A DNA stretch of 12,258 nucleotides from a virus (Duplodnaviria; Heunggongvirae; Uroviricota; Caudoviricetes). Numbering within the stretch: the first letter of the stretch is position 1; each line of letters starts with the position of its first letter. A program made the position numbers and the translations under genes. Of the stretch, positions 1-12,258 are shown in pieces. The notes below the pieces were generated by a model. The model did not search any database. It was not told the origin of the DNA and worked only from the letters and a program-made list of their open reading frames with translations. Where the stretch lies: the IMG/VR virus record IMGVR_UViG_2585427784_000003, positions 1-12,258 of that record. One strand, written 5' to 3'.

Positions 1-1284
1 TTACTTCTTCGCCTCTGCAACCACTTTACTACCCACGCCGCGGTTATTGTATTCCCACATGCGGTTGTAGTTAGTGTCATTCAGATTGCGCTGTATTTCG
101 TCGTTATCATCTACGCTGCCGGTATTACCCGCAAACGGACGATTAGAGATCACCGCATCGGCCCACGGTTTCGCCGTGTTAAAACCTTCGTTGATGGCGC
201 TATCACGGATCACCACCTGACCGTTGGTATTGGCATCAACATCCAGCGAGCGGCCCAGTTGCGCCACACCATCACCGAAAGCATTGAAACGGCTGTTTAC
301 GGCGAGGAAACCGTAGTAAATGTTGGACAGCGTAGCCGGTGCAAACACATACGCTTCTTGCTGAGTACGTGAGTTCACCACGCGGAATTCGGTGTTATCG
401 AACACCACTGCGCCGCGACCAGAAACGATATCCACATCCCCTTCAATGTAGCTGTTGGTCACCAGCGTACGCGGCTGACGATTCGTTTCCAGACGGTTCT
501 GCACACCGCTGTTGGTGACAAAGAAGGTGTTCTGACGACCGAGAATGTTAACGTTGTTAATCTGTACCTGGTCACCATCAGTACGCAGTGCCACCGCCGG
601 ATGGTTACCTGCATCTACGCTATCGCCCAGCGTGTTTTCGATGGTCAGATTTTGCAGTTGCAGGCCATTGTTTTGTGACCAGAAGACCGCAGAGCAGAGA
701 ACACCGATACTGTCGCTGCGTTTGCTCTGGCAGCTATCGTACATATACCACGCTGGTTTACCTGGCATATATTTGCCGCGCGGGTTGACGTCGTGACGCC
801 AGTCGGCAGGGCTCATGCCACCATCAAGGGAAAGCCCAATCTTCACATCAATCGGTTTTTCACCTGTACCGTACAGAGTAATTCCACCCGGAGCGGCAGG
901 GACATATACCGTTCCCTGATACTCACCAGGCATCACGGCAATATACTGGCGCTTGTTGGTACGCTTGATAATTGCCGCATCTACCGCCGCCTGAATCGTG
1001 GTATGCGTTACACCTTGAGTGCCCGCCGGGCCGACAACAAAGTCAGGTTGCGCAGGCAGGGTAATCGGGGAAGGATTCCACGCTGCAGCACCTGGTGTCA
1101 GGGATGCAAAATAGTGTTGAGCATCGAAATTCTGCGCTTCTTTTGCCGACAGAATCGGGCGAGAAGAGGTACCAGGCGCGGTTTGATCAGAAGGACGTTG
1201 ATCGGGCGGGGTTGAGCTACAGGCGGTCAGCGTCACGCCAAAAGCCAATGCCAGCGCCAGACGGGAAACTGAAAATGTGTTCAC
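1..1284 (-). CDS. ybhC: Host pectinesterase-family outer-membrane lipoprotein (YbhC-like), complete 427 aa
   Basis: Full-length 427-aa ORF with a lipoprotein signal and lipobox (MNTFSVSRLALALAFGVTLTAC). Sequence and length match what I recall for E. coli YbhC, and it sits directly next to the lambda att core as expected for the gal-side flank of attB-lambda. No alignment was run. Confidence 0.85.
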   Translation of the reverse strand: MNTFSVSRLALALAFGVTLTACSSTPPDQRPSDQTAPGTSSRPILSAKEAQNFDAQHYFASLTPGAAAWNPSPITLPAQPDFVVGPAGTQGVTHTTIQAAVDAAIIKRTNKRQYIAVMPGEYQGTVYVPAAPGGITLYGTGEKPIDVKIGLSLDGGMSPADWRHDVNPRGKYMPGKPAWYMYDSCQSKRSDSIGVLCSAVFWSQNNGLQLQNLTIENTLGDSVDAGNHPAVALRTDGDQVQINNVNILGRQNTFFVTNSGVQNRLETNRQPRTLVTNSYIEGDVDIVSGRGAVVFDNTEFRVVNSRTQQEAYVFAPATLSNIYYGFLAVNSRFNAFGDGVAQLGRSLDVDANTNGQVVIRDSAINEGFNTAKPWADAVISNRPFAGNTGSVDDNDEIQRNLNDTNYNRMWEYNNRGVGSKVVAEAKK

Positions 1285-1330
1285 AGGTTGCTCCGGGCTA
1301 TGAAATAGAAAAATGAATCCGTTGAAGCCT

Positions 1331-1345
1331 GCTTTTTTATACTAA
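1331..1345. other. attL: attL common core (lambda O region, GCTTTTTTATACTAA)
   Basis: Exact 15-bp lambda core at 1331-1345, with host-type sequence (tgaagcct) on the ybhC side and phage P' arm sequence (gttggcattataaaaaagcattgc...) on the int side. Confidence 0.93.
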
Positions 1346-1422
1346 GTTGGCATTATAAAAAAGCATTGCTTATCAATTTGTTGCAACGAACAGGTCACTA
1401 TCAGTCAAAATAAAATCATTAT
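1346..1422. promoter_or_regulatory. attP P' arm: IHF H' site and Int arm-type sites P'1 to P'3
   Basis: An IHF-like motif (tatcaatttgttg, about 1371-1383) is followed by contiguous arm-type repeats (aggtcactat, cagtcaaaat, aaaatcattat) at about 1391-1422. The spacing to the int stop, about 81 bp from core centre, is what I recall for lambda. Confidence 0.8.
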
Positions 1423-2489
1423 TTGATTTCAATTTTGTCCCACTCCCTGCCTCTGTCATCACGATACTGTGATGCCATGGTGTCCGACTTATGCCCGAGA
1501 AGATGTTGAGCAAACTTATCGCTTATCTGCTTCTCATAGAGTCTTGCAGACAAACTGCGCAACTCGTGAAAGGTAGGCGGATCCCCTTCGAAGGAAAGAC
1601 CTGATGCTTTTCGTGCGCGCATAAAATACCTTGATACTGTGCCGGATGAAAGCGGTTCACGACGAGTAGATGCAATTATGGTTTCTCCGCCAAGAATCTC
1701 TTTGCATTTATCAAGTGTTTCCTTCATTGATATCCCGAGAGCATCAACATGCAATGTTGTTGGGATGGCAATTTTTACGCCTGTTTTGCTTTGCTCGACA
1801 TAAAGATATCCATCTACGATATCAGACCACTTCATTTCGCATAAATCACCAACTCGTTGCCCGGTAACAACAGCCAGTTCCATTGCAAGTCTGAGCCAAC
1901 ATGGTGATGATTCTGCTGCTTGATAAATTTTCAGGTATTCGTCAGCCGTAAGTCTTGATCTCCTTACCTCTGATTTTGCTGCGCGAGTGGCAGCGACAGG
2001 GTTTGTTGTTATATGGCCTTCAGCTATTGCCTCTCGGAATGCATCGCTCAGTGTTGATCTGATTAACTTGGCTGACGCCGCCTTGCCCTCGTCTATGTAT
2101 CCATTGAGCATTGCCGCAATTTCTTTTGTGGTGATGTCTTCAAGTGGAGCATCAGGCAGACCCCTCCTTATTGCTTTAATTTTGCTCATGTAATTTATGA
2201 GTGTCTTCTGCTTGATTCCTCTGCTGGCCAGGATTTTTTCGTAGCGATCAAGCCATGAATGTAACGTAACGGAATTATCACTGTTGATTCTCGCTGTCAG
2301 AGGCTTGTGTTTGTGTCCTGAAAATAACTCAATGTTGGCCTGTATGGCTTCAGTGATTGCGATTCGCCTGTCTCTGCCTAATCCAAACTCTTTACCCGTC
2401 CTTGGGTCCCTGTAGCAGTAATATCCATTGTTTCTTATATAAAGGTTAGGGGGTAAATCCCGGCGCTCATGACTTCGCCTTCTTCCCAT
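1419..2489 (-). CDS. int: Lambda integrase (tyrosine recombinase), 356 aa
   Basis: ORF translation MGRRRSHERRDLPPNLYIRNNGYYCYRDPRTGKEF...REWDKIEIK is near-identical to lambda Int as I recall it, with the same length and the same position relative to att and xis. Confidence 0.97.
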   Translation of the reverse strand: MGRRRSHERRDLPPNLYIRNNGYYCYRDPRTGKEFGLGRDRRIAITEAIQANIELFSGHKHKPLTARINSDNSVTLHSWLDRYEKILASRGIKQKTLINYMSKIKAIRRGLPDAPLEDITTKEIAAMLNGYIDEGKAASAKLIRSTLSDAFREAIAEGHITTNPVAATRAAKSEVRRSRLTADEYLKIYQAAESSPCWLRLAMELAVVTGQRVGDLCEMKWSDIVDGYLYVEQSKTGVKIAIPTTLHVDALGISMKETLDKCKEILGGETIIASTRREPLSSGTVSRYFMRARKASGLSFEGDPPTFHELRSLSARLYEKQISDKFAQHLLGHKSDTMASQYRDDRGREWDKIEIK

Positions 2490-2685
2490 TTCTGATCCTC
2501 TTCAAAAGGCTACCTGTTACTGGTCGATTTAAGTCAACCTTTACCGCTGATTCGTGGAACAGATACTCTCTTCCATCCTTAACCGGAGGAGGGAATATCC
2601 TGCACTCGCGTACCCATCGACGAACTGTTTCAAGGCTTCTTGGGCGTCGCTGGCGTGCGTTCCACTCCTGAAGTGTCAAGTACAT
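2467..2685 (-). CDS. xis: Lambda excisionase, 72 aa
   Basis: MYLTLQEWNARQRRPRSLETVRRWVRECRIFPPPVKDGREYLFHESAVKVDLNRPVTG... matches lambda Xis from memory. Its 3' end overlaps the int start by 23 nt, as in lambda. Confidence 0.95.
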   Translation of the reverse strand: MYLTLQEWNARQRRPRSLETVRRWVRECRIFPPPVKDGREYLFHESAVKVDLNRPVTGSLLKRIRNGKKAKS

Positions 2686-2712
2686 CGCAAAGTCTCCGCA
2701 ATTACACGCAAG

Positions 2713-2732
2713 AAAAAACCGCCATCAGGCGG
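2713..2732 (-). terminator. Small GC hairpin plus U6 on the minus strand (intrinsic-terminator-like), overlapping the orf55 stop
   Basis: Minus strand reads g-ccgcc-tgat-ggcgg-tttttt: a 5-bp GC stem, 4-nt loop and six U. The stem is short, so function is uncertain. Confidence 0.3.
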
Positions 2733-2892
2733 CTTGGTGTTCTTTCAGTTCTTCAATTCGAATATTGGTTACGTCTGCATGTGCTATCTGCGCCCACAGC
2801 ATCCAGTGGTCATAGCAGTCGCTGATGTTCTCGGCTTCGATAACTCTGTTGAATGGTTCTCCATTCCATTCACCTGTGACTCGGAAGTGCAT
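2725..2892 (-). CDS. Lambda orf55-like small hypothetical protein, 55 aa (below the ORF-track length cutoff)
   Basis: Hand translation of the minus strand gives MHFRVTGEWNGEPFNRVIEAENISDCYDHWMLWAQIAHADVTNIRIEELKEHQAA then a stop. This matches my recollection of the small lambda ORF just upstream of xis in the pL operon. Confidence 0.6.
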   Translation of the reverse strand: MHFRVTGEWNGEPFNRVIEAENISDCYDHWMLWAQIAHADVTNIRIEELKEHQAA

Positions 2893-2942
2893 TTATCATC
2901 TCCAAAAAACAAACCCCGCCGTAGCGAGTTCAGATAAAAGAA

Positions 2943-2962
2943 ATCCTCGTCAGTGCGAGGAT
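2943..2962 (-). terminator. Hairpin (7-bp stem atcctcg/cgaggat) followed on the minus strand by a U-rich tract
   Basis: Perfect inverted repeat at 2943-2949 and 2956-2962. The minus strand continues ttcttttatctg. It lies at the boundary of the replaced ea8.5/ea22 slot. Confidence 0.25.
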
Positions 2963-3134
2963 GCTGTTCATTGCTGCTATACACTTTTTTGCTCTCAACG
3001 TAAGCGGTAGCCCATTCTGTTGGGTTGGTGCAGTTGCTTTTAGGAAATGCTATTTACCCCTTAAATGTCGGCTGAAAGAGCTAAAATCCATGCAAAAAAT
3101 TTACGCAATTTTGTGTATTATTGTGCAGTAAGTA

Positions 3135-3737
3135 ATGAGCTATTTTCTGCGCAAAAAATGGATGGTAAATTTGTCCGGGTCAGGAAAAATTTTATGGGCG
3201 CTAAACATGAAAAAAGATTCGTATCCTTATTTGATTTGCATGACAGTTTCAGGGCTGATCTTTATTTTCCTTTTCTTCTGGTGGCGGGCAGATATCTACA
3301 GGGTCACGTTTCTTAATCAGAGTATATCCCACTATTACATTCTGTTTAGCATGGGAATAGCTTTTCTGTTATCTCTGTTTTGGGTTAAGAAGGGGATAGT
3401 AAAACAAAGAGGCTGGAAGAGTCTGTCAGCATACCTTAAGGTTTATGCAGGGATGTGCATATTTGCTGGATTTTTTCTGATTATACCCCTTACGACACTA
3501 ACTTATTTTTTGCCTGGAGAGACATCGTCTTATGTTGCACCGTATCGGTATACTTCCGGTAGTTCAAAAAGTTGTTCTGGAGCTGAGGTGGATGACCCCG
3601 ATCTACATGAGAATATTCGCATTTGCTATCCGTATCGCAATTATGAGTACGATAATATTATCTATGTTGAAAAGAAAATTAATATATTAGGTGCGGTAGT
3701 GACATATGCACAGACCGCGCGTGATGATACTGAATGA
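3135..3737 (+). CDS. Cargo (moron) gene: integral membrane protein with three predicted TM helices and a ~70-aa soluble C-terminus; function unknown
   Basis: 200-aa ORF on the strand opposite to the pL operon, in visibly AT-rich DNA. Hydrophobic segments are LICMTVSGLIFIFLFFWW, YYILFSMGIAFLLSLFWV and VYAGMCIFAGFFLIIPLTTLTYF. Alternative in-frame starts lie at 3162 and 3207; none has a strong ribosome-binding site, so the start is uncertain. Confidence 0.5.
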   Translation: MSYFLRKKWMVNLSGSGKILWALNMKKDSYPYLICMTVSGLIFIFLFFWWRADIYRVTFLNQSISHYYILFSMGIAFLLSLFWVKKGIVKQRGWKSLSAYLKVYAGMCIFAGFFLIIPLTTLTYFLPGETSSYVAPYRYTSGSSKSCSGAEVDDPDLHENIRICYPYRNYEYDNIIYVEKKINILGAVVTYAQTARDDTE

Positions 3738-3773
3738 TATAGTATATAGCGGGCAAGTTTTAGTTAATTTATC

Positions 3774-3795
3774 GAGGTAATATAATTTACCTCGA
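3774..3795 (+). terminator. Hairpin downstream of the membrane-protein gene (8-bp stem cgaggtaa/ttacctcg, 6-nt loop)
   Basis: Perfect 8-bp inverted repeat about 37 bp after the stop at 3737. There is no clean U-run after it, so this is only a candidate terminator. Confidence 0.3.
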
Positions 3796-3947
3796 CTCGT
3801 TTGTTCTGGTATTAATATTTCGCTTTACGACCGATTTTTATCTGATGATATCATGCGGTTTTCATATACTGACTTACTGTCTTTTCTCCGTTAGCGATTT
3901 TCTCCTGCTCAGCGATGATTTTATCTTTGGCTTCTAGTTAATTTCGC

Positions 3948-4169
3948 TCACTTCGAACCTCTCTGTTTACTGATAAGCTCCAGATCCTCCTGGCAACTTG
4001 CACAAGTCCGACAACCCTGAACGACCAGGCGTCTTCGTTCATCTATCGGATCGCCACACTCACAACAATGAGTGGCAGATATAGCCTGGTGGTTCAGGCG
4101 GCGCATTTTTATTGCTGTGTTGCGCTGTAATTCTTCAATTTCTGATGCTGAATCAATGATGTCTGCCAT
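3948..4169 (-). CDS. orf73: Lambda exo-xis region Orf73: TraR/DksA-family C4 zinc-finger protein
   Basis: 73-aa ORF with the four-cysteine motif CCECGDPIDERRRLVVQGCRTCASC. Position and size fit lambda orf73, a TraR homologue. Confidence 0.8.
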   Translation of the reverse strand: MADIIDSASEIEELQRNTAIKMRRLNHQAISATHCCECGDPIDERRRLVVQGCRTCASCQEDLELISKQRGSK

Positions 4170-4223
4170 CTTCCATTAATCCCTGAATTGTTGGTTAATA
4201 CGCTTGAGGGTGAATGCGAATAA

Positions 4224-4246
4224 TAAAAAAGGAGCCTGTAGCTCCC
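4224..4246 (-). terminator. Intrinsic-terminator-like hairpin on the minus strand between orf61-like and orf73
   Basis: Minus strand reads (g)ggagc-tacag-gctcc(t) followed by ttttttatta. It starts about 20 bp after the orf61-like stop. Confidence 0.45.
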
Positions 4247-4267
4247 TGATGATTTTGCTTTTCATGT

Positions 4268-4579
4268 TCATCGTTCCTTAAAGACGCCGTTTAACATGCC
4301 GATTGCCAGGCTTAAATGAGTCGGTGTGAATCCCATCAGCGTTACCGTTTCGCGGTGCTTCTTCAGTACGCTACGGCAAATGTCATCGACGTTTTTATCC
4401 GGAAACTGCTGTCTGGCTTTTTTGATTTCAGAATTAGCCTGACGGGCAATGCTGCGAAGGGCGTTTTCCTGCTGAGGTGTCATTGAACAAGTCCCATGTC
4501 GGCAAGCATAAGCACACAGAATATGAAGCCCGCTGCCAGAAAAATGCATTCCGTGGTTGTCATACCTGGTCTCTCTCAT
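4268..4579 (-). CDS. orf61: Lambda orf61-like exo-xis protein (longest ORF 103 aa; an internal start at 4483 would give 71 aa)
   Basis: Its start overlaps the orf63 stop by 20 nt, which I recall as the lambda orf61/orf63 arrangement. The ORF is longer than the 61 aa I remember for lambda orf61; cause unknown. Confidence 0.5.
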   Translation of the reverse strand: MRETRYDNHGMHFSGSGLHILCAYACRHGTCSMTPQQENALRSIARQANSEIKKARQQFPDKNVDDICRSVLKKHRETVTLMGFTPTHLSLAIGMLNGVFKER

Positions 4580-4751
4580 CTGCTTCTGCTTTCGCCACCA
4601 TCATTTCCAGCTTTTGTGAAAGGGATGCGGCTAACGTATGAAATTCTTCGTCTGTTTCTACTGGTATTGGCACAAACCTGACTCCAATTTGAGCGAGGCT
4701 ATGTGCCATCTCGATACTCGTTCTTAACTCAACGGGAGATGCTTTGTGCAT
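4560..4751 (-). CDS. orf63: Lambda exo-xis region Orf63, 63 aa
   Basis: 63-aa ORF ([37 protein letters not shown]...) at the expected place between orf60a and orf61. Confidence 0.75.
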   Translation of the reverse strand: MHKASPVELRTSIEMAHSLAQIGVRFVPIPVETDEEFHTLAASLSQKLEMMVAKAEADERDQV

Positions 4752-4906
4752 ACAGCTCCCCGTTTATTATTTATCTCCTCAGCCAGCCGCTGTGCTTTCA
4801 GGGGATTTCGGATAACAGAAAGGCCGGGAAATACCCAGCCTCGCTTCGTAACGGAGTAGACGAAAGTGATCGTGCCTACGCGGATATTATCGTGAGGATG
4901 TTTCAT
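4724..4906 (-). CDS. orf60a: Lambda exo-xis region Orf60a, 60 aa
   Basis: [60 protein letters not shown]. The start codon overlaps the exo stop by 4 nt, as in lambda. The ORF track begins two codons earlier, at 4912. Confidence 0.8.
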
Positions 4907-5583
4907 CGCCATTGCTCCCCAAATACAAAACCAATTTCAGCCAGTGCCTCGTCCATTTTTTCGATGAACTCCGGCACCATCTCGTCAAAACTCGCTATAT
5001 ACTTTTCATTCCGCTCAATCACGACATAATGAAGGCCTTCACGCTTCATACGCGGGTCATAGTTGGCAAAGTACCAGGCATCTTTTCGCGTCACCCACAT
5101 GCTGTACTGCACCTGGGCCATGTAAGCCGACTTTATGGCCTCGAAACCACCGAGCCGGAATTTCATGAAATCCCGGGAGGTAAACGGGTATTTCAGCTCA
5201 AGGCCATTGCCGTCACTGCATAAACCATCGGGAGAGCAGGCGGTGCGCATACTTTCGTCGCGATAGATGATCGGGGATTCAATAACATTTACGCCGGAAG
5301 TGAACTCAAACAGGGTTCTGGCGTCGTTCTCGTACTGTTTTCCCCAGGCCAGCGCTTTAGCGTTAACTTCCGGAGCCACACCGGTGCAAACCTCAGCTAG
5401 CAGGGTGTGGAAGTAGGACATTTTCATGTCAGGCCACTTCTTTCCTGATCGGGGCTTTGCTATCACGTTGTGAACTTCTGAAGCGGTGATGACGCCGAGC
5501 CGTAATTTGTGCCATGCATCATCCCCCTGTTCGACAGCTCTCACGTCGATCCCGGTACGCTGCAGGATAATGTCCGGTGTCAT
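4903..5583 (-). CDS. exo: Lambda exonuclease (Red-alpha), 226 aa
   Basis: [65 protein letters not shown]...[11 protein letters not shown] is near-identical to lambda Exo from memory. Confidence 0.97.
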
Positions 5584-5684
5584 GCTGCCACCTTCTGCTC
5601 AGTGGCTTTCTGTTTCAGGAATCCAAGAGCTTTCACTGCTTCGGCCTGTGTCAGTTCTGACGATGCGCGAATGTCGCGGCGAAA
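5580..5684 (-). pseudogene. bet: 3' remnant of bet (Red-beta): only the last ~34 codons, no start codon
   Basis: The minus-strand frame ending in the ATGA overlap with exo reads ...[34 protein letters not shown] then a stop, matching the lambda Bet C-terminus. Upstream the frame reaches a stop at about 5724 with no ATG, and homology ends at about 5684. Confidence 0.85.
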
Positions 5685-5906
5685 TACCAGAACATGCGGG
5701 CCAATGCGCTTACTGATGCGGAATTACGGCGCAAGGCTGCCGATGAACTGACTTGTATGACCGCGCGAATTAACCGTGGTGAGGCGATACCTGAACCAGT
5801 AAAACAACTTCCTGTCATGGGCGGTAGACCTCTAAATCGTGCACAGGCTCTGGCGAAGATCGCAGAAATCAAAGCGAAGTTCGGACTGAAAGGAGCAACT
5901 GTATGA
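5685..5906 (+). pseudogene. P: 3' remnant of replication gene P (C-terminal ~74 codons); an ATG at 5694 gives a 70-aa ORF
   Basis: Plus-strand frame reads YQNMRANALTDAELRRKAADELTCMTARINRGEAIPEPVKQLPVMGGRPLNRAQALAKIAEIKAKFGLKGATV then a stop, matching the lambda P C-terminus from memory. It begins directly at the bet junction, and the stop overlaps the ren start. Confidence 0.85.
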
Positions 5907-6184
5907 CGGGCAAAGAGGTAATTATTCATTATCTGGAGACGCACAAGAGCTTCTGTGCGCAGGACGTTGCTGCGGCAACAGGTGTGACAGTAACCTGCAT
6001 AAATCAGGCAGCAGCTAAAATGGCGCGGGCAGGAATCCTGGTCATTGATGGTAAGGTCTGGCGAACGGTGTATTACCGGTTCGCTACCAGAGAAGAACGG
6101 GAAGGAAAGGTGAGCACGAACCTGATTTTTAAGGAGTGTCGCCAGAGTGCCGCGATGAAGCGGGTGTTGGCGGTATATGGGTGA
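5903..6184 (+). CDS. ren: Lambda Ren protein, 93 aa
   Basis: MTGKEVIIHYLETHKSFCAQDVAAATGVTVTCINQAAAKMARAGILVIDGKVWRTVYYRFATREEREGKVSTNLIFKECRQSAAMKRVLAVYG matches lambda Ren from memory. Ribosome-binding site aaggag lies upstream, and the start overlaps the P stop (ATGA). Confidence 0.85.
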   Translation: MTGKEVIIHYLETHKSFCAQDVAAATGVTVTCINQAAAKMARAGILVIDGKVWRTVYYRFATREEREGKVSTNLIFKECRQSAAMKRVLAVYG

Positions 6185-6479
6185 TTAGTTATTACTTGAT
6201 TTGATGGTTATCTCGAAAACATCCAATCAAATTTAATGGTTTGCTTTGTGCGGGGAACTATAACAATGTTTCTAGCTTGGTGCTGTATGTATTAGTGAAT
6301 TAGTAGGGAATATATCCACACATTGATTAACACAAAAATATTTTAGATATTAAATGTAACTCAAAGGTTGAGTAATAATGGTTGTGTAGCGTATAACAGG
6401 ATGCTGAGGTAGTATTAAACAATGAATAAATCTGATTGACAAGCACCAGATAATACTGCGGGTCAATCATTAGACATGA

Positions 6480-6512
6480 ACGCCACTAGTTACTGAGAGT
6501 AACTAATGGCGT
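6480..6512. repeat. Near-perfect 15-bp inverted repeat (acgccactagttact / agtaactaatggcgt, one mismatch, 3-nt loop) in the AT-rich spacer
   Basis: Read directly from the sequence. It lies about 45 bp beyond the 3' end of the HD-domain gene and about 300 bp after ren. It may be a terminator or a protein-binding site. Confidence 0.3.
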
Positions 6513-6554
6513 TGTGTTTATAGTTAAGATGTTTTTTAAAACATCAGGGGGGCT

Positions 6555-8102
6555 CTACTTGTCTTTTTTAATATGATCAATCTCATCATTAAGACATTTA
6601 TCTATTTTTTTTATTAACACATTAATTTCTTCGGTGTTTTGGAGTTGAGTTGTCTTAGAAACAAAAACTCGAATAAAGAATTTAACATAGTGATAGGGTT
6701 GAAGTACATCGTTATACTTACATAAATCATTTATTGTATACTTGCCGCCTGTTTCTTTTTTTATTATTTTAGCTTGACTTGTATCGATATCTTTAAAGTT
6801 ATCTTCAATCTGAAAATCAAGAACCCATTCATCTCCTTTTAAATTATCCTCAATGATTTTGTTGATTTTCTTAGATATATTTTGTTTATATTCTTTGTAT
6901 CTGTTGTCGGAAATGTTAACATTAGAAAACGTGTGTTTTTTTTCATATATTTTTTTCCAAACATTTCTATCAACAATATCTTGAATTATAGCTTGAGAAT
7001 TTTTATCTAATGTGTTTTTAAGAGTGTTTTCTAAAAACGTTTTGTCTGGGTTTTCACGATAAAAGTGTTTGATGGACTCAATGAGAGTGTTTTTAGATTT
7101 TAAAGAGACAACATCATCAGTTTTTTTTCTAGAACACGCTTTGTTAAGCATCGCAGATAGTGCACGATTGGTCTTATGAAAATAAACTTGACTATAAAGC
7201 CCACTTCTTGCATTGGCAAATTCTAGTATTGAATCCATACCACTTTCTTTATATGCCAGGTAAACACTATTTTCAACTTTCACAGGAATAAATGACATTA
7301 ATAATCGTCCATAATCATAAATCCCATATTTAACGCCGGAGAAGTAGCTATCTCTAAGTAGGTAGTCCATTCTGTCCGCATCTATAGGTGAAGATGATAT
7401 GATTGAACCTAATAAAGGATATACATTTACTCCCTCAATGTTATTTTTAAAATCATATCTTTTATCAACAATTTTTATAATGCTTTCTGGATTAATAGCC
7501 GCTATGTTTTCTTTATAGACATCGTCGTCATTTGATTTATCTTGGGCTTCATTTTTTAATTCTTCAATAATTTCTTTAATAAAAATACATGATACTTGTT
7601 CGTGGGTTAACTTGTCATTATCACTTAAAGATATAATCTTATCGTATTGTTTATTTCCTTCAGTTTTGCATTTTTCTTTGAAATCTTTTACGGATATTGC
7701 AAAACTATCGAATTGGTGGGCAAGTGGGCCATGCCCAACATCGTGTAACAATGCTGCAATACGTAACTCCTGTATAAGACTTGAAGGCATTTTTTTTATA
7801 TCTAAATATAGATCAATGCCCATATTTTTTCGATTGTAAATTAGTGCATTTATATCAATATTTTTTAATATTTCATACGATAAATGCATTACACCGACAG
7901 AGTGTTCAAAGCGAGAGTGCATTGCAGAAGGAAATACTTTATATAGAAACGTGTTCTGCCTGATATCTCGTAGTCGTTGGAATAAAGGATGGTCAATTAT
8001 CTTTTTTTCTAGCTTAGTTATTCGAATCACTCCATGTATGGGATCTAAAAACTTCCCCAGAAGTAAGTCTTCAAAGTTCTCAAGTTTGTTTTTGTTTGTC
8101 AT
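6555..8102 (-). CDS. HD-domain dNTP triphosphohydrolase-like protein (SAMHD1/dGTPase family) with a long K/N/D-rich C-terminal extension, 515 aa
   Basis: Motifs seen in the translation: PLFQRLRDIRQ...HSRFEHSVGV, LLHDVGHGPLAH and DADRMDYLLRD, the metal-binding H...HD...D set of SAMHD1/Dgt-type enzymes. Ribosome-binding site aaggaaa precedes the ATG at 8102. The gene is visibly AT-rich. Confidence 0.85.
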   Translation of the reverse strand: MTNKNKLENFEDLLLGKFLDPIHGVIRITKLEKKIIDHPLFQRLRDIRQNTFLYKVFPSAMHSRFEHSVGVMHLSYEILKNIDINALIYNRKNMGIDLYLDIKKMPSSLIQELRIAALLHDVGHGPLAHQFDSFAISVKDFKEKCKTEGNKQYDKIISLSDNDKLTHEQVSCIFIKEIIEELKNEAQDKSNDDDVYKENIAAINPESIIKIVDKRYDFKNNIEGVNVYPLLGSIISSSPIDADRMDYLLRDSYFSGVKYGIYDYGRLLMSFIPVKVENSVYLAYKESGMDSILEFANARSGLYSQVYFHKTNRALSAMLNKACSRKKTDDVVSLKSKNTLIESIKHFYRENPDKTFLENTLKNTLDKNSQAIIQDIVDRNVWKKIYEKKHTFSNVNISDNRYKEYKQNISKKINKIIEDNLKGDEWVLDFQIEDNFKDIDTSQAKIIKKETGGKYTINDLCKYNDVLQPYHYVKFFIRVFVSKTTQLQNTEEINVLIKKIDKCLNDEIDHIKKDK

Positions 8103-8163
8103 GAGGCTTTCCTTTTGCTGTAGTTATAATACGAAATTTAAATAGTAATGATGTTTATAGTTT

Positions 8164-8192
8164 CAATGTGTTATCTAATGGTTAACACATTG
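8164..8192. promoter_or_regulatory. Perfect 10-bp inverted repeat (caatgtgtta, 9-bp spacer, taacacattg) about 60 bp upstream of the HD-domain gene start; candidate operator
   Basis: Perfect palindrome arms read directly. No U-run follows on either strand, so a protein-binding site is more likely than a terminator. Confidence 0.3.
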
Positions 8193-8460
8193 TGATGTAG
8201 CATATCAATATGGATTCATATGTTCAATTGGTCTGTGGAGTTTAGTTATGAATAAGATTGATTCTGGTAATACTTTGTAGTTTAAGCTAGAGGCGGGATT
8301 CGTGATGTTCAAATCAGTATGTAATGGAGGTTGTGCATTAGTACTTGCTGCTGGAAATTAAAAATAAAGTTGCAAGTAATCGACGTTTTCCGAGAGGAGG
8401 ATGTAGCATCGCTGACCAAAAAGTATCAACGATGCCTGTTTTGTTTTAACTACAAATTAA

Positions 8461-9804
8461 TTAAATTGCATCTGCAAACTCTGGGATTTTTCGCTCAAGT
8501 ATGATTGATGAGTTGCTGTTGTCGCTTTTTTTATTTTCATGATTACGAATAGCCAATGACTCATTAAAGTCTTTTGCGACTGCTGTCTCAATAAATTCAA
8601 TTTCTGAATCAGAGTGTTTTTTAACAGCTTCTTTGATCTCATCCAGAGTAACATAGAAAAACTCTTTTCTACGATTTACAAGATTGACTCTCTTTTTATC
8701 GAAGACATCATGTAGTTTTTTTTCTAATGATGGAGCGTCCTCCGAATAAATCATGGCATGCACATCAAAAATAAAAGGAACAGATGCATCACCAAGCTCA
8801 TTTACACGGTCTTGTGGATCAAGACGTCGTGTCATGCCTATTTTATAAACATTCTCCCCAAAAGAACCTATGTTCGAAATAATATAAACATGACCTTGTT
8901 TGGTTTGTTGTGCCATGGATAATGCTCTTTGATGCTTTGATTCAGCCTGCGACAAACTCTGTTCTAGTTCGGCAATGCGATTTTCGAGGCGCTGCTTCAT
9001 GTCACCAGTAACTTTTTCCATTTCCTTTCTTGCAGCTTCAATTGCTTTTTTATAACGGCGCTCTTCTGCCTCTGCGTCTTGCATGGCCTTTTCTATTTCT
9101 CGTTGTGCACGCTCCTCCTCTCTCATTTGTGCCCTTATTTCTGCCTGTTCTTCTTTTTCTTTCTGTTTTTGCTCACGATATTCATGGGTAAGCCACAACT
9201 CCTCAAGTTTTTTATTAAGGTATTTAGTATTTATATATATGTGATTTTGCTCGTTTAGTTTATTTATGGCCTCAAATGCCTTTGTGATGCGTTCTTCCAT
9301 TTTAGTGATATTTTTCCACGTGCAATTACTAATTGCAGCATCACATTCATTATTAAATGCTCTAGTAGTTAGCCTAATATTTCTGTCTGTCATTTTTTTA
9401 CCCTCTGCTCGAGAGCCTTCAACAGTCCATTGGGTTGTGCAATATACTGCACCAGAGTGGGTTTTATCCCGCAGCATTAATTTCTGTTCATCCCTGATGG
9501 ATTTTATTTTGTTTTTAAATTGCTCTGAATCTTCAAAATTAAAATGAGGTTCGTAAAATCCTAGTTCGGCTAGTTCAACATCTTCTGAATAAATAGAAAT
9601 TTGCTTTACTAGCTTATCATATATTTCTTTCTTCTCTTTATAAGTTCTTCTTAGTTCTTGGATTTGTTTATTGATACCATCCATTTTTTCAATGGTGTTT
9701 GTTAGTTCATTATTGGCATTTTCTTTTACTTTTTGGGACTCTTCTTTTATAATGGAGTATTCTTGCTCTGTTTTCTCAATAAGCTTCTTACATTCCTCTT
9801 CCAC
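8461..9804 (-). CDS. DUF4041 plus T5orf172 (GIY-YIG-like) protein with a central coiled coil, 447 aa as called; it probably begins upstream at 9964 (see frameshift finding)
   Basis: DUF4041-like block (...GFYEPHFNFEDSEQFKNKIKSIRDEQKLMLRDKTHSGAVYCTTQWTVEGSRAEGKKMTDRNIRLTTRAFNNECDAAISNCTWKN...), then an E/K/R/Q-rich coiled coil, then a T5orf172-like block (GHVYIISNIGSFGENVYKIGMTRRLDPQDRVNELGDASVPFIFDVHAMIYSEDAPSLEKKLHDVFDKKRVNLVNRRKEFFYV). The called start is a GTG with no ribosome-binding site. Confidence 0.85.
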   Translation of the reverse strand: MEEECKKLIEKTEQEYSIIKEESQKVKENANNELTNTIEKMDGINKQIQELRRTYKEKKEIYDKLVKQISIYSEDVELAELGFYEPHFNFEDSEQFKNKIKSIRDEQKLMLRDKTHSGAVYCTTQWTVEGSRAEGKKMTDRNIRLTTRAFNNECDAAISNCTWKNITKMEERITKAFEAINKLNEQNHIYINTKYLNKKLEELWLTHEYREQKQKEKEEQAEIRAQMREEERAQREIEKAMQDAEAEERRYKKAIEAARKEMEKVTGDMKQRLENRIAELEQSLSQAESKHQRALSMAQQTKQGHVYIISNIGSFGENVYKIGMTRRLDPQDRVNELGDASVPFIFDVHAMIYSEDAPSLEKKLHDVFDKKRVNLVNRRKEFFYVTLDEIKEAVKKHSDSEIEFIETAVAKDFNESLAIRNHENKKSDNSNSSIILERKIPEFADAI

Positions 9805-9856
9805 ATTAAAATAATCTGCAAAGCGAGATTTGTATTCTTCATTTTTTTGATTGCTA

Positions 9857-9964
9857 TCACTTAATTCTAATTGTATTTTTTTTGATGCGTTTGATTGCAG
9901 CTATATATAGAACAAGAACAACCAATAAAAATATGATTGCAAGTAATAGTGGAGTTTGAGTCAT
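9857..9964 (-). CDS. 35-aa ORF encoding a single transmembrane helix (MTQTPLLLAIIFLLVVLVLYIAAIKRIKKNTIRIK); probably the displaced N-terminus of the DUF4041 gene
   Basis: ATG at 9964 is preceded by aagga with about 9-nt spacing. The ORF ends 53 bp before the GTG of the 447-aa ORF, and the two frames differ by one nucleotide across an A8 run (coding strand; T8 at 9876-9883 on plus). Confidence 0.45.
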   Translation of the reverse strand: MTQTPLLLAIIFLLVVLVLYIAAIKRIKKNTIRIK

Positions 9965-10390
9965 TCGTGCTATTCCTTACGGACAATTTAAGACGTTTTG
10001 TATTAAATCCTGTTCAATGTGTATGCGGGTGATTGCTACCGCTTACAATCTTCATAATTATCAGTTAGATAGACTCGCTAGTAAATAATTTCATTTTTTG
10101 CAATATTCTTATTGAATATTTCAATTTATGAAATGAGCTCTTTATCCTTTCAAGGCGAAAGGTTTCTTCTTCGGAAATATTTGCTCTCGTGTGACGTATA
10201 AAGGCCTTTGATTTTTAAAAAACAGTAGGAAATAATATAGTTACTGTCGGCCTGAACACCCGGCGGTGGGGTTGCGCTAAACGGGGACGTTTATGCGCAC
10301 ATACAATCTAAACTCTCTTCTCCCTTCACAGATGCAGAAATGCACCTGCGATTTTTTGCATCCAACGTTTGACCTCTGCGGAGGTGAAGC

Positions 10391-10846
10391 ATGAACCTAC
10401 CACAAGATGGCATCAAATTACATCGTGGCAACTTCACCGCTATCGGCCAGCAGATCCAGCCTTATCTGGAGGACGGAAAATGCTTTCGCATGGTGCTTAA
10501 ACCGTGGCGTGAGAAACGCAGTCTTTCCCAGAGTGCACTCAGCCACATGTGGTACAGCGAAATCAGTGAATACCTTATCAGCAGGGGTAAAACGTTCGCC
10601 ACTCCAGCTTGGGTAAAAGATGCTCTCAAACACACATATCTCGGTTATGAAACCAAAGACCTGGTTGATGTCGTAACCGGTGATATCACCACTATCCAGT
10701 CGTTACGCCATACCTCCGACCTTGATACCGGAGAGATGTATGTCTTCCTGTGTAAGGTTGAAGCCTGGGCGATGAATATTGGCTGCCACCTGACTATTCC
10801 GCAGAGCTGCGAGTTCCAGCTGCTGCGTGATAAGCAGGAGGCGTAA
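10391..10846 (+). CDS. ybcN: DLP12-type nin-region protein YbcN, 151 aa
   Basis: [67 protein letters not shown]... matches E. coli YbcN from memory. Ribosome-binding site ggaggtg lies upstream. Confidence 0.88.
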
Positions 10847-11016
10847 TGGCTACACCGCTTATTCGTGTCATGAACGGACACATCTACAAAATACCAAATC
10901 GTCGTAAGCGTAGGCCTGAGCTGAAACCATCCGAAATACCAACACTGCTCGGATATACCGCCAGCCTGGTTGATAAAAAATGGTTGCGACTGGCAGCAAG
11001 GAGGAATCATGGCTGA
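10846..11016 (+). CDS. ninE: NinE, 56 aa (below the ORF-track length cutoff)
   Basis: Hand translation: [56 protein letters not shown]. The start overlaps the ybcN stop (TAATG). Confidence 0.8.
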   Translation: MATPLIRVMNGHIYKIPNRRKRRPELKPSEIPTLLGYTASLVDKKWLRLAARRNHG

Positions 11017-11299
11017 TTTGAGAAAAGCAGCGCGTGGTCGGGAATGCCAGGTAAGAATCCCTGGCGTATGTAATGGCAATCCTGAAACGTCTGTACTGGC
11101 ACATATCCGGCTGGCTGGATTGTGCGGTACCGGTATCAAACCGCCAGACCTGATTGCCACCATTGCATGTTCTGCCTGTCACGACGAGATCGACCGTCGC
11201 ACGCATTTTGTTGACGCTGGATATGCAAAAGAATGCGCGCTGGAAGGTATGGCGAGAACGCAGGTTATCTGGCTGAAAGAGGGGGTAATTAAGGCGTGA
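11009..11299 (+). CDS. ybcO: DLP12-type YbcO (putative nuclease), 96 aa from the ATG at 11009
   Basis: [96 protein letters not shown], preceded by aggagg. The ORF track starts earlier, at 10970. Confidence 0.85.
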
Positions 11300-11658
11300 A
11301 TACCTACAATATCACATTACCCTGGCCGCCGAGCAATAATCGCTATTACCGCCATAATCGCGGGCGCACGCACATCAGCGCAGAGGGGCAGGCATACCGC
11401 GAAAACGTCGCCCGAATCATTAAAAACGCAATGCTGGATATCGGCCTGGCTATGCCTGTGAAAATCCGCATTGAGTGTCACATGCCGGATCGCCGTCGCC
11501 GTGACCTGGATAATCTACAAAAGGCCGCTTTTGACGCACTCACCAAAGCAGGTTTCTGGTTGGATGATGCTCAGGTCGTTGATTACCGCGTTGTGAAGAT
11601 GCCGGTTGTCAAAGGTGGAAAGCTGGAACTGACCATCACTGAACAGGGAGATGAATGA
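11296..11658 (+). CDS. rusA: Holliday-junction resolvase RusA, 120 aa
   Basis: [95 protein letters not shown]... matches E. coli RusA from memory. Confidence 0.95.
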
Positions 11659-11795
11659 TGTTTGAGTTTTATATGGCAGAACTTCTTCGCCACCGCTGGA
11701 TGCGCCTGCGCTTATATCGTTTCCCCGGTTCTGTTTTGACCGATTACCGAATACTGAAGAATTACGCCAAAACACTGACAGGAGCAGGAGTATGA
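11655..11795 (+). CDS. ylcG: Small nin-region protein YlcG, 46 aa (below the ORF-track length cutoff)
   Basis: Hand translation: [46 protein letters not shown]. The start overlaps the rusA stop (ATGA). Confidence 0.7.
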
Positions 11796-11880
11796 AGTCA
11801 GAGATAACAATCAACTAATACTGTTTTGTTGATTTTTGCTTGTAATTGGCGTTCTGGTCTGAGTTTTGTGGAGTAAGTTG

Positions 11881-12258
11881 ATGCGTGATATTCAGATGGT
11901 TCTTGAGCGTTGGGGAGCGTGGGCGGCTAATAATCATGAAGATGTGACCTGGTCGTCCATTGCCGCCGGTTTTAAGGGATTAATTCCTTCAAAAGTAAAA
12001 TCTCGCCCACAATGTTGTGACGATGACGCGATGATCATTTGCGGGTGCATGGCCCGTCTGAAAAAGAACAACAGCGATTTGCATGATTTATTGGTGGACT
12101 ATTATGTCGGCGGCATGACTTTTATGGCGCTTGCACGTAAGCATGGGCGATCTGATTGTTGGGTTGGCAGGATGCTCCAGAAAGCTGAGGGCGTAGTGGA
12201 GGGTATGCTGATGGTGTTGGATCTCCGATTGGAGATGGATGCTGATTGTTCGAAATAA
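11881..12258 (+). CDS. quuD: Late-gene antiterminator Q (DLP12 QuuD-like), 125 aa from the ATG at 11881
   Basis: [75 protein letters not shown]... matches DLP12-type Q from memory. Ribosome-binding site ggag lies 7 nt upstream, and the stop codon is the last three bases of the window. Confidence 0.8.

Follow-up and report, generated by a model that had tools for sequence, protein, structure and literature searches.

A prophage-borne HD-domain protein of the SAMHD1/EF1143 clade: a putative dNTP triphosphohydrolase and candidate defense gene of Escherichia coli

The DNA considered here, positions 1 to 12,258 of the IMG/VR virus record IMGVR_UViG_2585427784_000003 (hereafter the window, a 12,258-nucleotide stretch whose own numbering is used throughout), is part of a lambda-like prophage of Escherichia coli. 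On its minus strand (6555–8102) it carries an intact gene for a 515-residue HD-domain protein, which we call the HD gene and the HD protein. The HD protein is almost certainly a member of the SAMHD1/EF1143 clade, of the COG1078 type, and by analogy with the characterized enzymes of that clade it probably hydrolyzes deoxynucleoside triphosphates (dNTPs). It lies as a discrete insert beside SNIPE, a defense gene of known action, in a variable site of the prophage, and on balance we lean toward the view that it is a stand-alone, nucleotide-regulated dNTPase that serves as a prophage defense moron.

The family assignment draws on sequence, profile and structure comparisons that agree with one another. 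The open reading frame (ORF) is uninterrupted and contains every motif quoted in a preliminary description of this DNA, namely PLFQRLRDIRQ (residues 39–49), HSRFEHSVGV (62–71), LLHDVGHGPLAH (118–129) and DADRMDYLLRD (241–251); its product differs from the RefSeq protein WP_074507652.1 at a single position (I84L). The same description had proposed a SAMHD1-like HD phosphohydrolase, and this proposal holds. Specifically, the Pfam HD profile scores 29.2 bits against a cut-off of 22, HD_assoc_2 falls just under its threshold on residues 289–414 (it is recorded for three relatives), and a phmmer search against all PDB sequences returned SAMHD1-family proteins only: the Aquifex protein 2hek (E=4.6e-30), EF1143 (6e-27), numerous entries for human SAMHD1 (about 3e-26) and, besides these, a fungal SAMHD1 (9mr6) and an orthologue from a nematode. 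Residues 19–430 align in one stretch with human SAMHD1 119–502 (phmmer against 7ujn_A, native numbering, E=3e-26), with 31% identity across 387 aligned residues. A profile of 49 relatives strengthens these matches (2hek, 3e-44; EF1143, as 2o6i, 2e-35; SAMHD1, 1e-31) and extends the SAMHD1 alignment to about residue 557, where IRVY is paired with IRVF. Likewise, the AlphaFold2 model of the full protein (mean predicted local distance difference test score, pLDDT, 88.2; predicted template-modeling score 0.89) retrieves through Foldseek a top 50 made up wholly of SAMHD1 chains or SAMHD1-containing entries, with template-modeling (TM) scores of 0.56–0.71 over 497–525 columns and SAMHD1 cores of 440–492 residues. 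The phage protein family PHROG 35128, which has no assigned function, matches residues 10–508, and when 185,579 species genomes were scanned using the family alignment, the matches listed were mostly distant archaeal and bacterial COG1078 genes.

The same searches place the HD protein away from the dGTPases that have been shown to act in phage defense, and the membership in that family implied by the preliminary description does not survive. No Dgt-type dGTPase structure occurs among the phmmer PDB matches at E≤1. The PADLOC dGTPase model PDLC02374 reaches only E=0.0025 (15 bits) on residues 59–153 alone, and with TIGR01353 the score is 21.2 bits, its cut-off being 152.35. Because all of the PDB matches are to the SAMHD1 family and both dGTPase models fail, the protein is placed on the SAMHD1/EF1143 branch of the HD superfamily, apart from the Dgt branch.

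The conservation of individual residues extends this picture into the active site and, in part, into the sites of regulation. For this comparison SAMHD1 119–557 was rebuilt from the alignments, 28 functionally named positions were verified against the PDB sequence, and the result was added to the alignment of the 49 relatives, to which all statements of invariance here refer; the roles of the human residues are those we take them to have from the structural literature. In the catalytic HD lobe (residues 1–325; 7128–8102, minus strand), the metal ligands H67, H120, D121 and D243 correspond to SAMHD1 H167, H206, D207 and D311 and are invariant. The catalytic and substrate residues R64, H124, H129, H167, R244, Y247, D251, R299 and Y307 are also invariant; their SAMHD1 counterparts are R164, H210, H215, H233, K312 (here an arginine), Y315, D319, R366 and Y374. 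The triad of allosteric site 1 that reads guanine, D137/Q142/R145 in SAMHD1, is found as D37/Q42/R45, with Q42 and R45 invariant and the D37 position occupied by aspartate in 30 of the 49 relatives and by asparagine in 14. Allosteric site 2 is preserved in part: R266, H309 and K310 show no variation, and the place of R352 is taken by K285. Furthermore, R379, the counterpart of the trans-acting SAMHD1 R451, is invariant and lies in the C-terminal part of the protein.

That part, the C-terminal third (residues 326–515; 6555–7127, minus strand), had been described as an unusual low-complexity extension without motifs that could be a regulatory or sensor domain. The biased composition is real (K 16.8%, D 10% and N 9.5%, with isoleucine also enriched), and the richness in K, I, D and N is in keeping with a gene of 30% GC; the remainder of the description does not fit what was found. 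The fold prediction is confident, with residues 330–515 at pLDDT 85–96 in the full model and at 85.4 when modeled alone, and is made up of three helices, a sheet of five strands with its packing helices, and a long helix at the end. The region contains 14 residues invariant across the 49 relatives, and relatives of 496–530 residues cover 92–100% of the query. It aligns with SAMHD1 residues ~390–557; the whole HD protein equals the SAMHD1 catalytic core in length, with nothing appended, and as a whole it matches that core minus the SAM domain.

Considered in isolation, the lobe gives fainter signals. A sequence profile of residues 326–515 from 16 relatives found nothing significant in the PDB (best E=0.47, an unrelated protein), and in that test the lobe cannot be tied to SAMHD1 by sequence alone. 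A lobe-only hhalign comparison matched residues 339–433 to SAMHD1 411–505 (26% identity, P=0.004, with a reported probability of only 8%) in a register that agrees with the full-length alignments. With the lobe-only model, Foldseek returned only SAMHD1-family entries in the top 50 of 350,542 chains, namely SAMHD1 orthologues, one SAMHD1-containing complex and 2hek, although these matches are weak (E 1.5e-3 to 5e-2, TM 0.31–0.45). That residues 330–515 form a novel sensor or regulatory domain, fused to the HD core and unrelated to the SAMHD1 lobe, is therefore very unlikely: the full-length hidden Markov model and phmmer alignments continue through the lobe to SAMHD1 ~502–557, the isolated lobe recovers the same register and the same structural family, R379 falls on R451, and the sub-threshold HD_assoc_2 match spans the boundary of the supposed extension. 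Most likely the C-terminal third is the family's ordinary, strongly diverged SAMHD1 C-terminal lobe with no added module. In SAMHD1 this lobe builds the tetramer and contributes residues to the allosteric nucleotide sites, and its counterpart here would most likely be regulatory in this established sense and not as an extra module.

The position of the gene in a prophage cargo island, also part of the preliminary description, is confirmed by its neighbor and by the insert on which it lies. The neighbor is SNIPE, also known as PD-lambda-1 (8461–9963, minus strand; PADLOC PD-Lambda-1 E=3e-191; Pfam DUF4041, MUG113 and T5orf172), a separate defense gene combining DUF4041 with a GIY-YIG/T5orf172 nuclease. 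Its product, a GIY-YIG nuclease anchored in the membrane, cuts the DNA of phages while it is being injected; as a single-gene system it has been shown experimentally to defend alone (PMC13190303). The paper in question does not mention an HD neighbor. Comparison of the window by blastn with two SNIPE-only loci (L014 and L015) delimits an HD cassette of 2,224 bp (6181–8404), in which the HD gene is preceded by 302 bp and followed by 374 bp. Its boundaries are discrete, it stands in place of 217 bp found in SNIPE-only lambdoid prophages, and its GC content of 31% departs from that of the flanks (about 50%). A second gene was looked for within it, and the cassette flanks yield only ORFs of 47 residues or fewer.

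The gene also seems to travel with its own 5′ region (8103–8227, minus strand, read from the sequence), because the 60 nucleotides preceding the start are conserved in the closest homologues of Serratia, Enterobacter and Proteus, where the surroundings are unrelated. These 60 nucleotides include a Shine-Dalgarno sequence, AAGGAAAG, placed 5 nucleotides before the ATG (occupying nucleotides 6–13 before it). Farther upstream there is a weak promoter-like site, TTGAAC-17-TATGCT (8227–8199, minus strand). Just downstream of this site, 62–90 nucleotides before the ATG, lies a perfect 10-bp inverted repeat, CAATGTGTTA-N9-TAACACATTG (8164–8192), which could be an operator; it is common to both E. coli alleles of the gene and was not found when looked for upstream of the Proteus, Serratia, Enterobacter and Yersinia homologues.

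The distribution of the two genes in E. coli bears on whether they act together. The HD gene is present in 21 of 5,426 complete genomes (0.4%), in 16 at ≥99% identity and in five at 89%, and the order ren-HD-SNIPE-ybcN is kept in all 21. SNIPE occurs in 131 genomes, 110 of which lack the HD gene; in the two SNIPE-only loci examined it directly follows ren. The SNIPE copies beside the HD gene are not all whole. In the window a T8 run at 9876–9883, T7 in the intact 500-residue copy of NZ_AP021895, shifts the frame and severs the N-terminal transmembrane helix, leaving a 447-residue ORF (8461–9804). Since SNIPE without this helix is reported to be highly toxic (PMC13190303), the window copy is either a dead gene or a homopolymer sequencing error. 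Separately, in three of the 21 HD-carrying genomes (NZ_CP101915, at 10908–13187 of locus L013; NZ_CP137705; NZ_AP038814) an IS1 insertion interrupts SNIPE and leaves the HD gene intact.

One could imagine from the constant adjacency and shared orientation, which hold even for the five genomes with the 11%-diverged HD allele, that SNIPE and the HD protein belong to a single two-gene system in which, for example, the dNTPase backs up or regulates the membrane nuclease. We consider this highly improbable. The HD gene is not a constant component of the SNIPE locus, SNIPE defends by itself (PMC13190303), no DUF4041 neighbor was seen beside the sampled HD homologues elsewhere, the HD gene is intact where SNIPE is IS1-split or frameshifted, and the two genes are separated by a 358-bp gap that carries the HD gene's own conserved 5′ region. 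Functional coupling of the two was accordingly rejected on distribution. Together, the SNIPE-only genomes, the defined insert at 6181–8404, the lack of a second plausible ORF in it and the 5′ region of its own argue for an independent single-gene cassette stacked beside SNIPE in a variable site.

It is informative to examine where homologues of the gene are found, based on 11 individual look-ups. In P2-like prophages of Yersinia enterocolitica and Y. ruckeri, homologues 67–68% identical to the window protein stand alone between gpS (tail completion) and gpV (baseplate spike), on the strand opposite to the tail genes (locus L097, 8001–9572; locus L100, 4007–5569). Hence a second, unrelated phage family carries the same single gene as cargo, and accessory and defense genes have been reported within P2's tail genes (PMC13586616). 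The Proteus mirabilis homologue lies in an island that interrupts icd, together with genes of the cyclic-oligonucleotide-based antiphage signaling system (CBASS; CD-NTase and Cap15) and other candidates. In Vibrio cholerae the homologue is part of a cassette array with toxin-antitoxin pairs, in Enterobacter it adjoins HigBA, and one further homologue accompanies AbiGi and integrase fragments in the remnant of a mobile element. These contexts are suggestive of an association of the family with mobile and defense loci.

How such a protein might protect a lysogen can be outlined from the biochemistry of its relatives. The HD protein would oligomerize through its C-terminal lobe, as SAMHD1 and EF1143 do, and the active sites of the oligomer would switch on only once (d)NTPs occupy the allosteric pockets. 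Its gene would be a prophage moron on a 2.2-kb low-GC cassette with its own 5′ region, and because its transcription runs antisense to the phage early operon, we propose that the lysogen expresses it. Upon infection by a phage that raises the dNTP pool, dNTPs would be hydrolyzed to deoxynucleosides and triphosphate, phage DNA replication would stall, and the lysogen would be protected. The HD protein would act without depending on its neighbor SNIPE, which stops phage DNA as it enters, and the two together would provide layered protection.

Depletion of dNTPs is an established bacterial defense (10.1101/2021.04.26.441389; PMC12265719; PMC13519002), and the idea that this gene might contribute one was also raised in the preliminary description, from an assumed kinship with defensive dGTPases. 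The kinship is to another branch, as set out above, and the context is favorable: such a role is a reasonable proposal because the protein is SAMHD1-like, the SNIPE neighbor is validated, and relatives occur in P2 sites, a CBASS island and a Vibrio array. The features by which a prophage defense moron can be recognized operationally, which are an insert of foreign composition, a variable site, a strand opposite to the lytic operon and defense contexts, are all found here.

Several observations nonetheless weigh against a defense role. Our literature searches turned up no paper in which this family is tested or its accessions are named, and PADLOC 2.0 lacks the family save for the marginal, partial match of its dGTPase model. 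The defense contexts come from a sample of roughly a dozen loci. A scan of 6100–10450 for promoters and terminators gave sites no more frequent than in shuffled sequence. Three positions of allosteric site 2 are changed relative to SAMHD1 (N119 to L19, K354 to S287 and N358 to S291), so that regulation need not match that of SAMHD1. Ordinary chromosomal surroundings with no mobile or defense genes nearby were seen for the Klebsiella homologue (from a cluster of 3,530 sequences), for those of Serratia and Aeromonas and for one more, and part of the family may therefore be housekeeping. Finally, recurrent frameshifts remove the C-lobe, and copies truncated in this way are common in databases. 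The HD gene contains seven A7–A8 runs, including A8 at 7121–7128 (coding-sequence nucleotides 975–982) and at 6936–6943 (nucleotides 1160–1167), and the truncated forms end just past these two A8 tracts: a 333-residue form (cluster P0029, 92 member sequences) after codon 327, and forms of 420, 395 and 389 residues after codon 388. Real slippage could be the cause, either as decay or as a way of turning a costly gene on and off, and so could assembly error. The gene may often be non-functional.

With these points in mind, two other functions for the gene deserve attention. Roles in tuning dNTP pools have been proposed for chromosomal enzymes of the Dgt and EF1143 types, and the HD protein might be a dNTPase that tunes or sanitizes the host pool, for instance in slow growth, in stationary phase or in the control of mutation rate, with the prophage copy a fitness factor or a hitch-hiker. 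The homologues of Klebsiella pneumoniae (the 3,530-sequence cluster), Serratia and Aeromonas, which sit among metabolic genes with no mobile signature, are in keeping with such a role, as is the wide occurrence, among the matches listed, of distant COG1078-type relatives in archaea and bacteria; in addition, one report (PMC11071499) ascribes a cell-cycle role to a Caulobacter dNTPase. Set against this, the closest clade (64–100% identity) is patchy and recurs in phage accessory sites and defense islands, the gene is present in only 0.4% of E. coli genomes, and its cargo site is shared with a proven defense gene. We regard a non-defense role as unlikely on these grounds. Rather more doubtful is the idea that the HD protein acts on another substrate, such as signaling nucleotides or nucleic acid, perhaps even as a phage counter-defense against host immune signals. 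HD domains do act on many phosphoesters, the protein is phage-borne and falls in a PHROG family without function, and the counterparts of SAMHD1 L150 and Q375 differ (N50, and F or Y at 308). However, the residues for SAMHD1-type triphosphohydrolysis and dNTP binding are all invariant, similarity spans the whole SAMHD1 core and goes beyond the HD motif, and, with the lytic operon on the other strand, the gene's orientation fits expression in a lysogen and not in lytic growth.

Variation within E. coli gives some indication of how the gene has been evolving. The two HD alleles (window 6555–8404 and NZ_CP051727, 8001–9850 of locus L012) are 89% identical, and the 11% of nucleotide differences are confined to coding-sequence nucleotides ~200–1400, with the gene ends and the 302-bp upstream region identical; this pattern points to a recombinant mosaic. 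The SNIPE genes beside the two alleles are 99.3% identical. The ratio of nonsynonymous to synonymous substitution rates (dN/dS) between the alleles is 0.25 overall, 0.16 for residues 1–325 and 0.48 for residues 326–515, which indicates purifying selection on the gene and a faster pace of evolution in the C-lobe. In light of the fact that Vpx targets the C-terminus of SAMHD1, these features invite a bolder, distinctly speculative reading, which we hold to be improbable: that the mobile gammaproteobacterial clade is the true bacterial antiviral counterpart of SAMHD1, a stand-alone dNTPase sensing the dNTP surge of an infecting phage through SAMHD1-type allosteric sites, with a C-lobe (fast-evolving, in mosaic alleles) contested by phage inhibitors and A8 tracts that switch a costly enzyme by slippage. 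If true, this would connect restriction by human SAMHD1 with a bacterial defense gene that can be aligned to it directly, a connection that Tal et al. were unable to make for the Dgt type.

Comparison with known systems helps to define what is shared and what is particular. The human SAMHD1 core (~113–599; for example PDB 7ujn, 4bzb and 6txc) is directly alignable and has in common with the HD protein the HD metal tetrad, the catalytic histidines, the substrate residues, the site-1 triad and the R451/R379 pair, as well as overall length and a two-lobe predicted fold. The HD protein lacks the SAM domain and the Vpx-targeted, T592-containing tail, has an insertion of ~20–25 residues after the HD motif (~135–160), and differs in allosteric site 2 and in its strongly diverged C-lobe; moreover, SAMHD1 is a human enzyme, whereas the prophage-borne bacterial gene is known here from sequence and model. 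The best sequence matches among solved structures are EF1143 (2o6i, 3irh and 4lrl) and Aquifex aeolicus Aq_1910 (2hek). EF1143 is a tetrameric, dGTP-activated dNTP triphosphohydrolase, and this is the activity we propose for the HD protein. Both are chromosomal and have no reported defense role, unlike the prophage-borne HD gene, and both align less far toward the C-terminus than SAMHD1 does (to query residue ~327 for EF1143 and ~378–390 for 2hek, which at 371 residues is shorter than the HD protein).

The Dgt-type defensive dGTPases, such as Sp-dGTPase and the Vibrio protein Vdg, resemble the HD protein in their proposed action, since they defend as single-gene systems by nucleotide depletion and are often on mobile elements (10.1101/2021.04.26.441389; PMC13519002). 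However, according to Tal et al. the dGTPases they studied are not directly alignable to SAMHD1 (10.1101/2021.04.26.441389), and the HD protein is. Clover combines a dNTPase, CloA, with a nucleotidyltransferase, CloB; nucleotide ligands at allosteric sites control the dNTPase, a phage-driven increase in dNTPs sets it off, and CloA is described as resembling the Dgt-type Sp-dGTPase in fold and structural features (PMC12265719). The likeness of Clover to the HD protein lies in a dNTPase effector under allosteric nucleotide control, which for the HD protein is our proposal. A Clover-like two-gene system was considered and rejected: the cassette holds the HD ORF only, with no nucleotidyltransferase, and the neighbors are ren and SNIPE. 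SNIPE itself has in common with the HD gene the cargo site (ren-ybcN of lambdoid prophages), the orientation and the low GC content, but its product is an unrelated protein.

The prophage that carries these genes adjoins ybhC. From left to right the window contains int, xis, exo, a deletion, the end of P, a ren-like ORF, the low-GC block, ybcN/ninB, ninE, ybcO, rusA and Q. About 5 kb has been lost relative to an otherwise 99.4–99.5% identical intact prophage, with the junction at window position 5686 (3493/8486 of locus L001). Because bet, gam, kil, the repressor region, the replication initiator and most of P are missing relative to the intact relative NZ_AP021895, the window prophage is a defective, non-inducible remnant, in which the HD gene is still intact. 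GC content drops from ~50% to 27–35% over 6250–10300, and the two genes of this low-GC block, the HD gene and SNIPE, are both on the minus strand, antisense to the phage early-right operon. The left flank of the cargo site (5694–6184, plus strand, opposite to the HD gene) consists of the 3′ remnant of replication gene P and the ren-like ORF, as identified by Pfam and by the annotation of intact relatives; the Phage_lambda_P match is weak and under the Pfam cut-off (21.2 bits against 26, E=2.7e-4). The right flank begins with ybcN/ninB (10391–10846, plus strand), followed by ninE, ybcO, rusA and Q, identified by the annotation of near-identical loci and by Pfam YbcO and Phage_antitermQ. Elsewhere in the window, between xis and a TraR/DksA-like gene, there is a 200-residue ORF (3135–3737, plus strand) whose hydrophobic stretches suggest membrane-spanning segments; the DNA here is 38–39% GC, and the ORF is on the strand opposite to its neighbors. 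It is hypothetical in RefSeq and has no match in Pfam or PADLOC; it may be another moron, with no function assigned. Five further ORFs in the window, small or unassigned, gave no matches in PADLOC, and a search of the window against Rfam found no RNA family.

Nucleotide depletion is an antiviral strategy in humans, through SAMHD1, and in bacteria, through Dgt-type dGTPases, dCTP deaminases and Clover. To our knowledge, the bacterial enzymes shown to defend in this way are so far only remotely related to SAMHD1. The branch to which the HD gene belongs aligns directly with SAMHD1, regulatory residues included, and it is found as single-gene cargo in lambda-like and P2-like prophages, in a defense island and in a Vibrio cassette array. 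The HD protein is probably a nucleotide-depleting defense enzyme, and its SAMHD1-branch family is not covered by current defense catalogues, which makes it a worthwhile, if not a surprising, candidate. Should the gene turn out not to protect, it would be an ordinary accessory dNTPase. If it is protective, it would add a family missed by current defense-finding tools, provide a one-gene model for SAMHD1-type allostery as an infection sensor, and make a stronger case for the bacterial roots of a human restriction mechanism.

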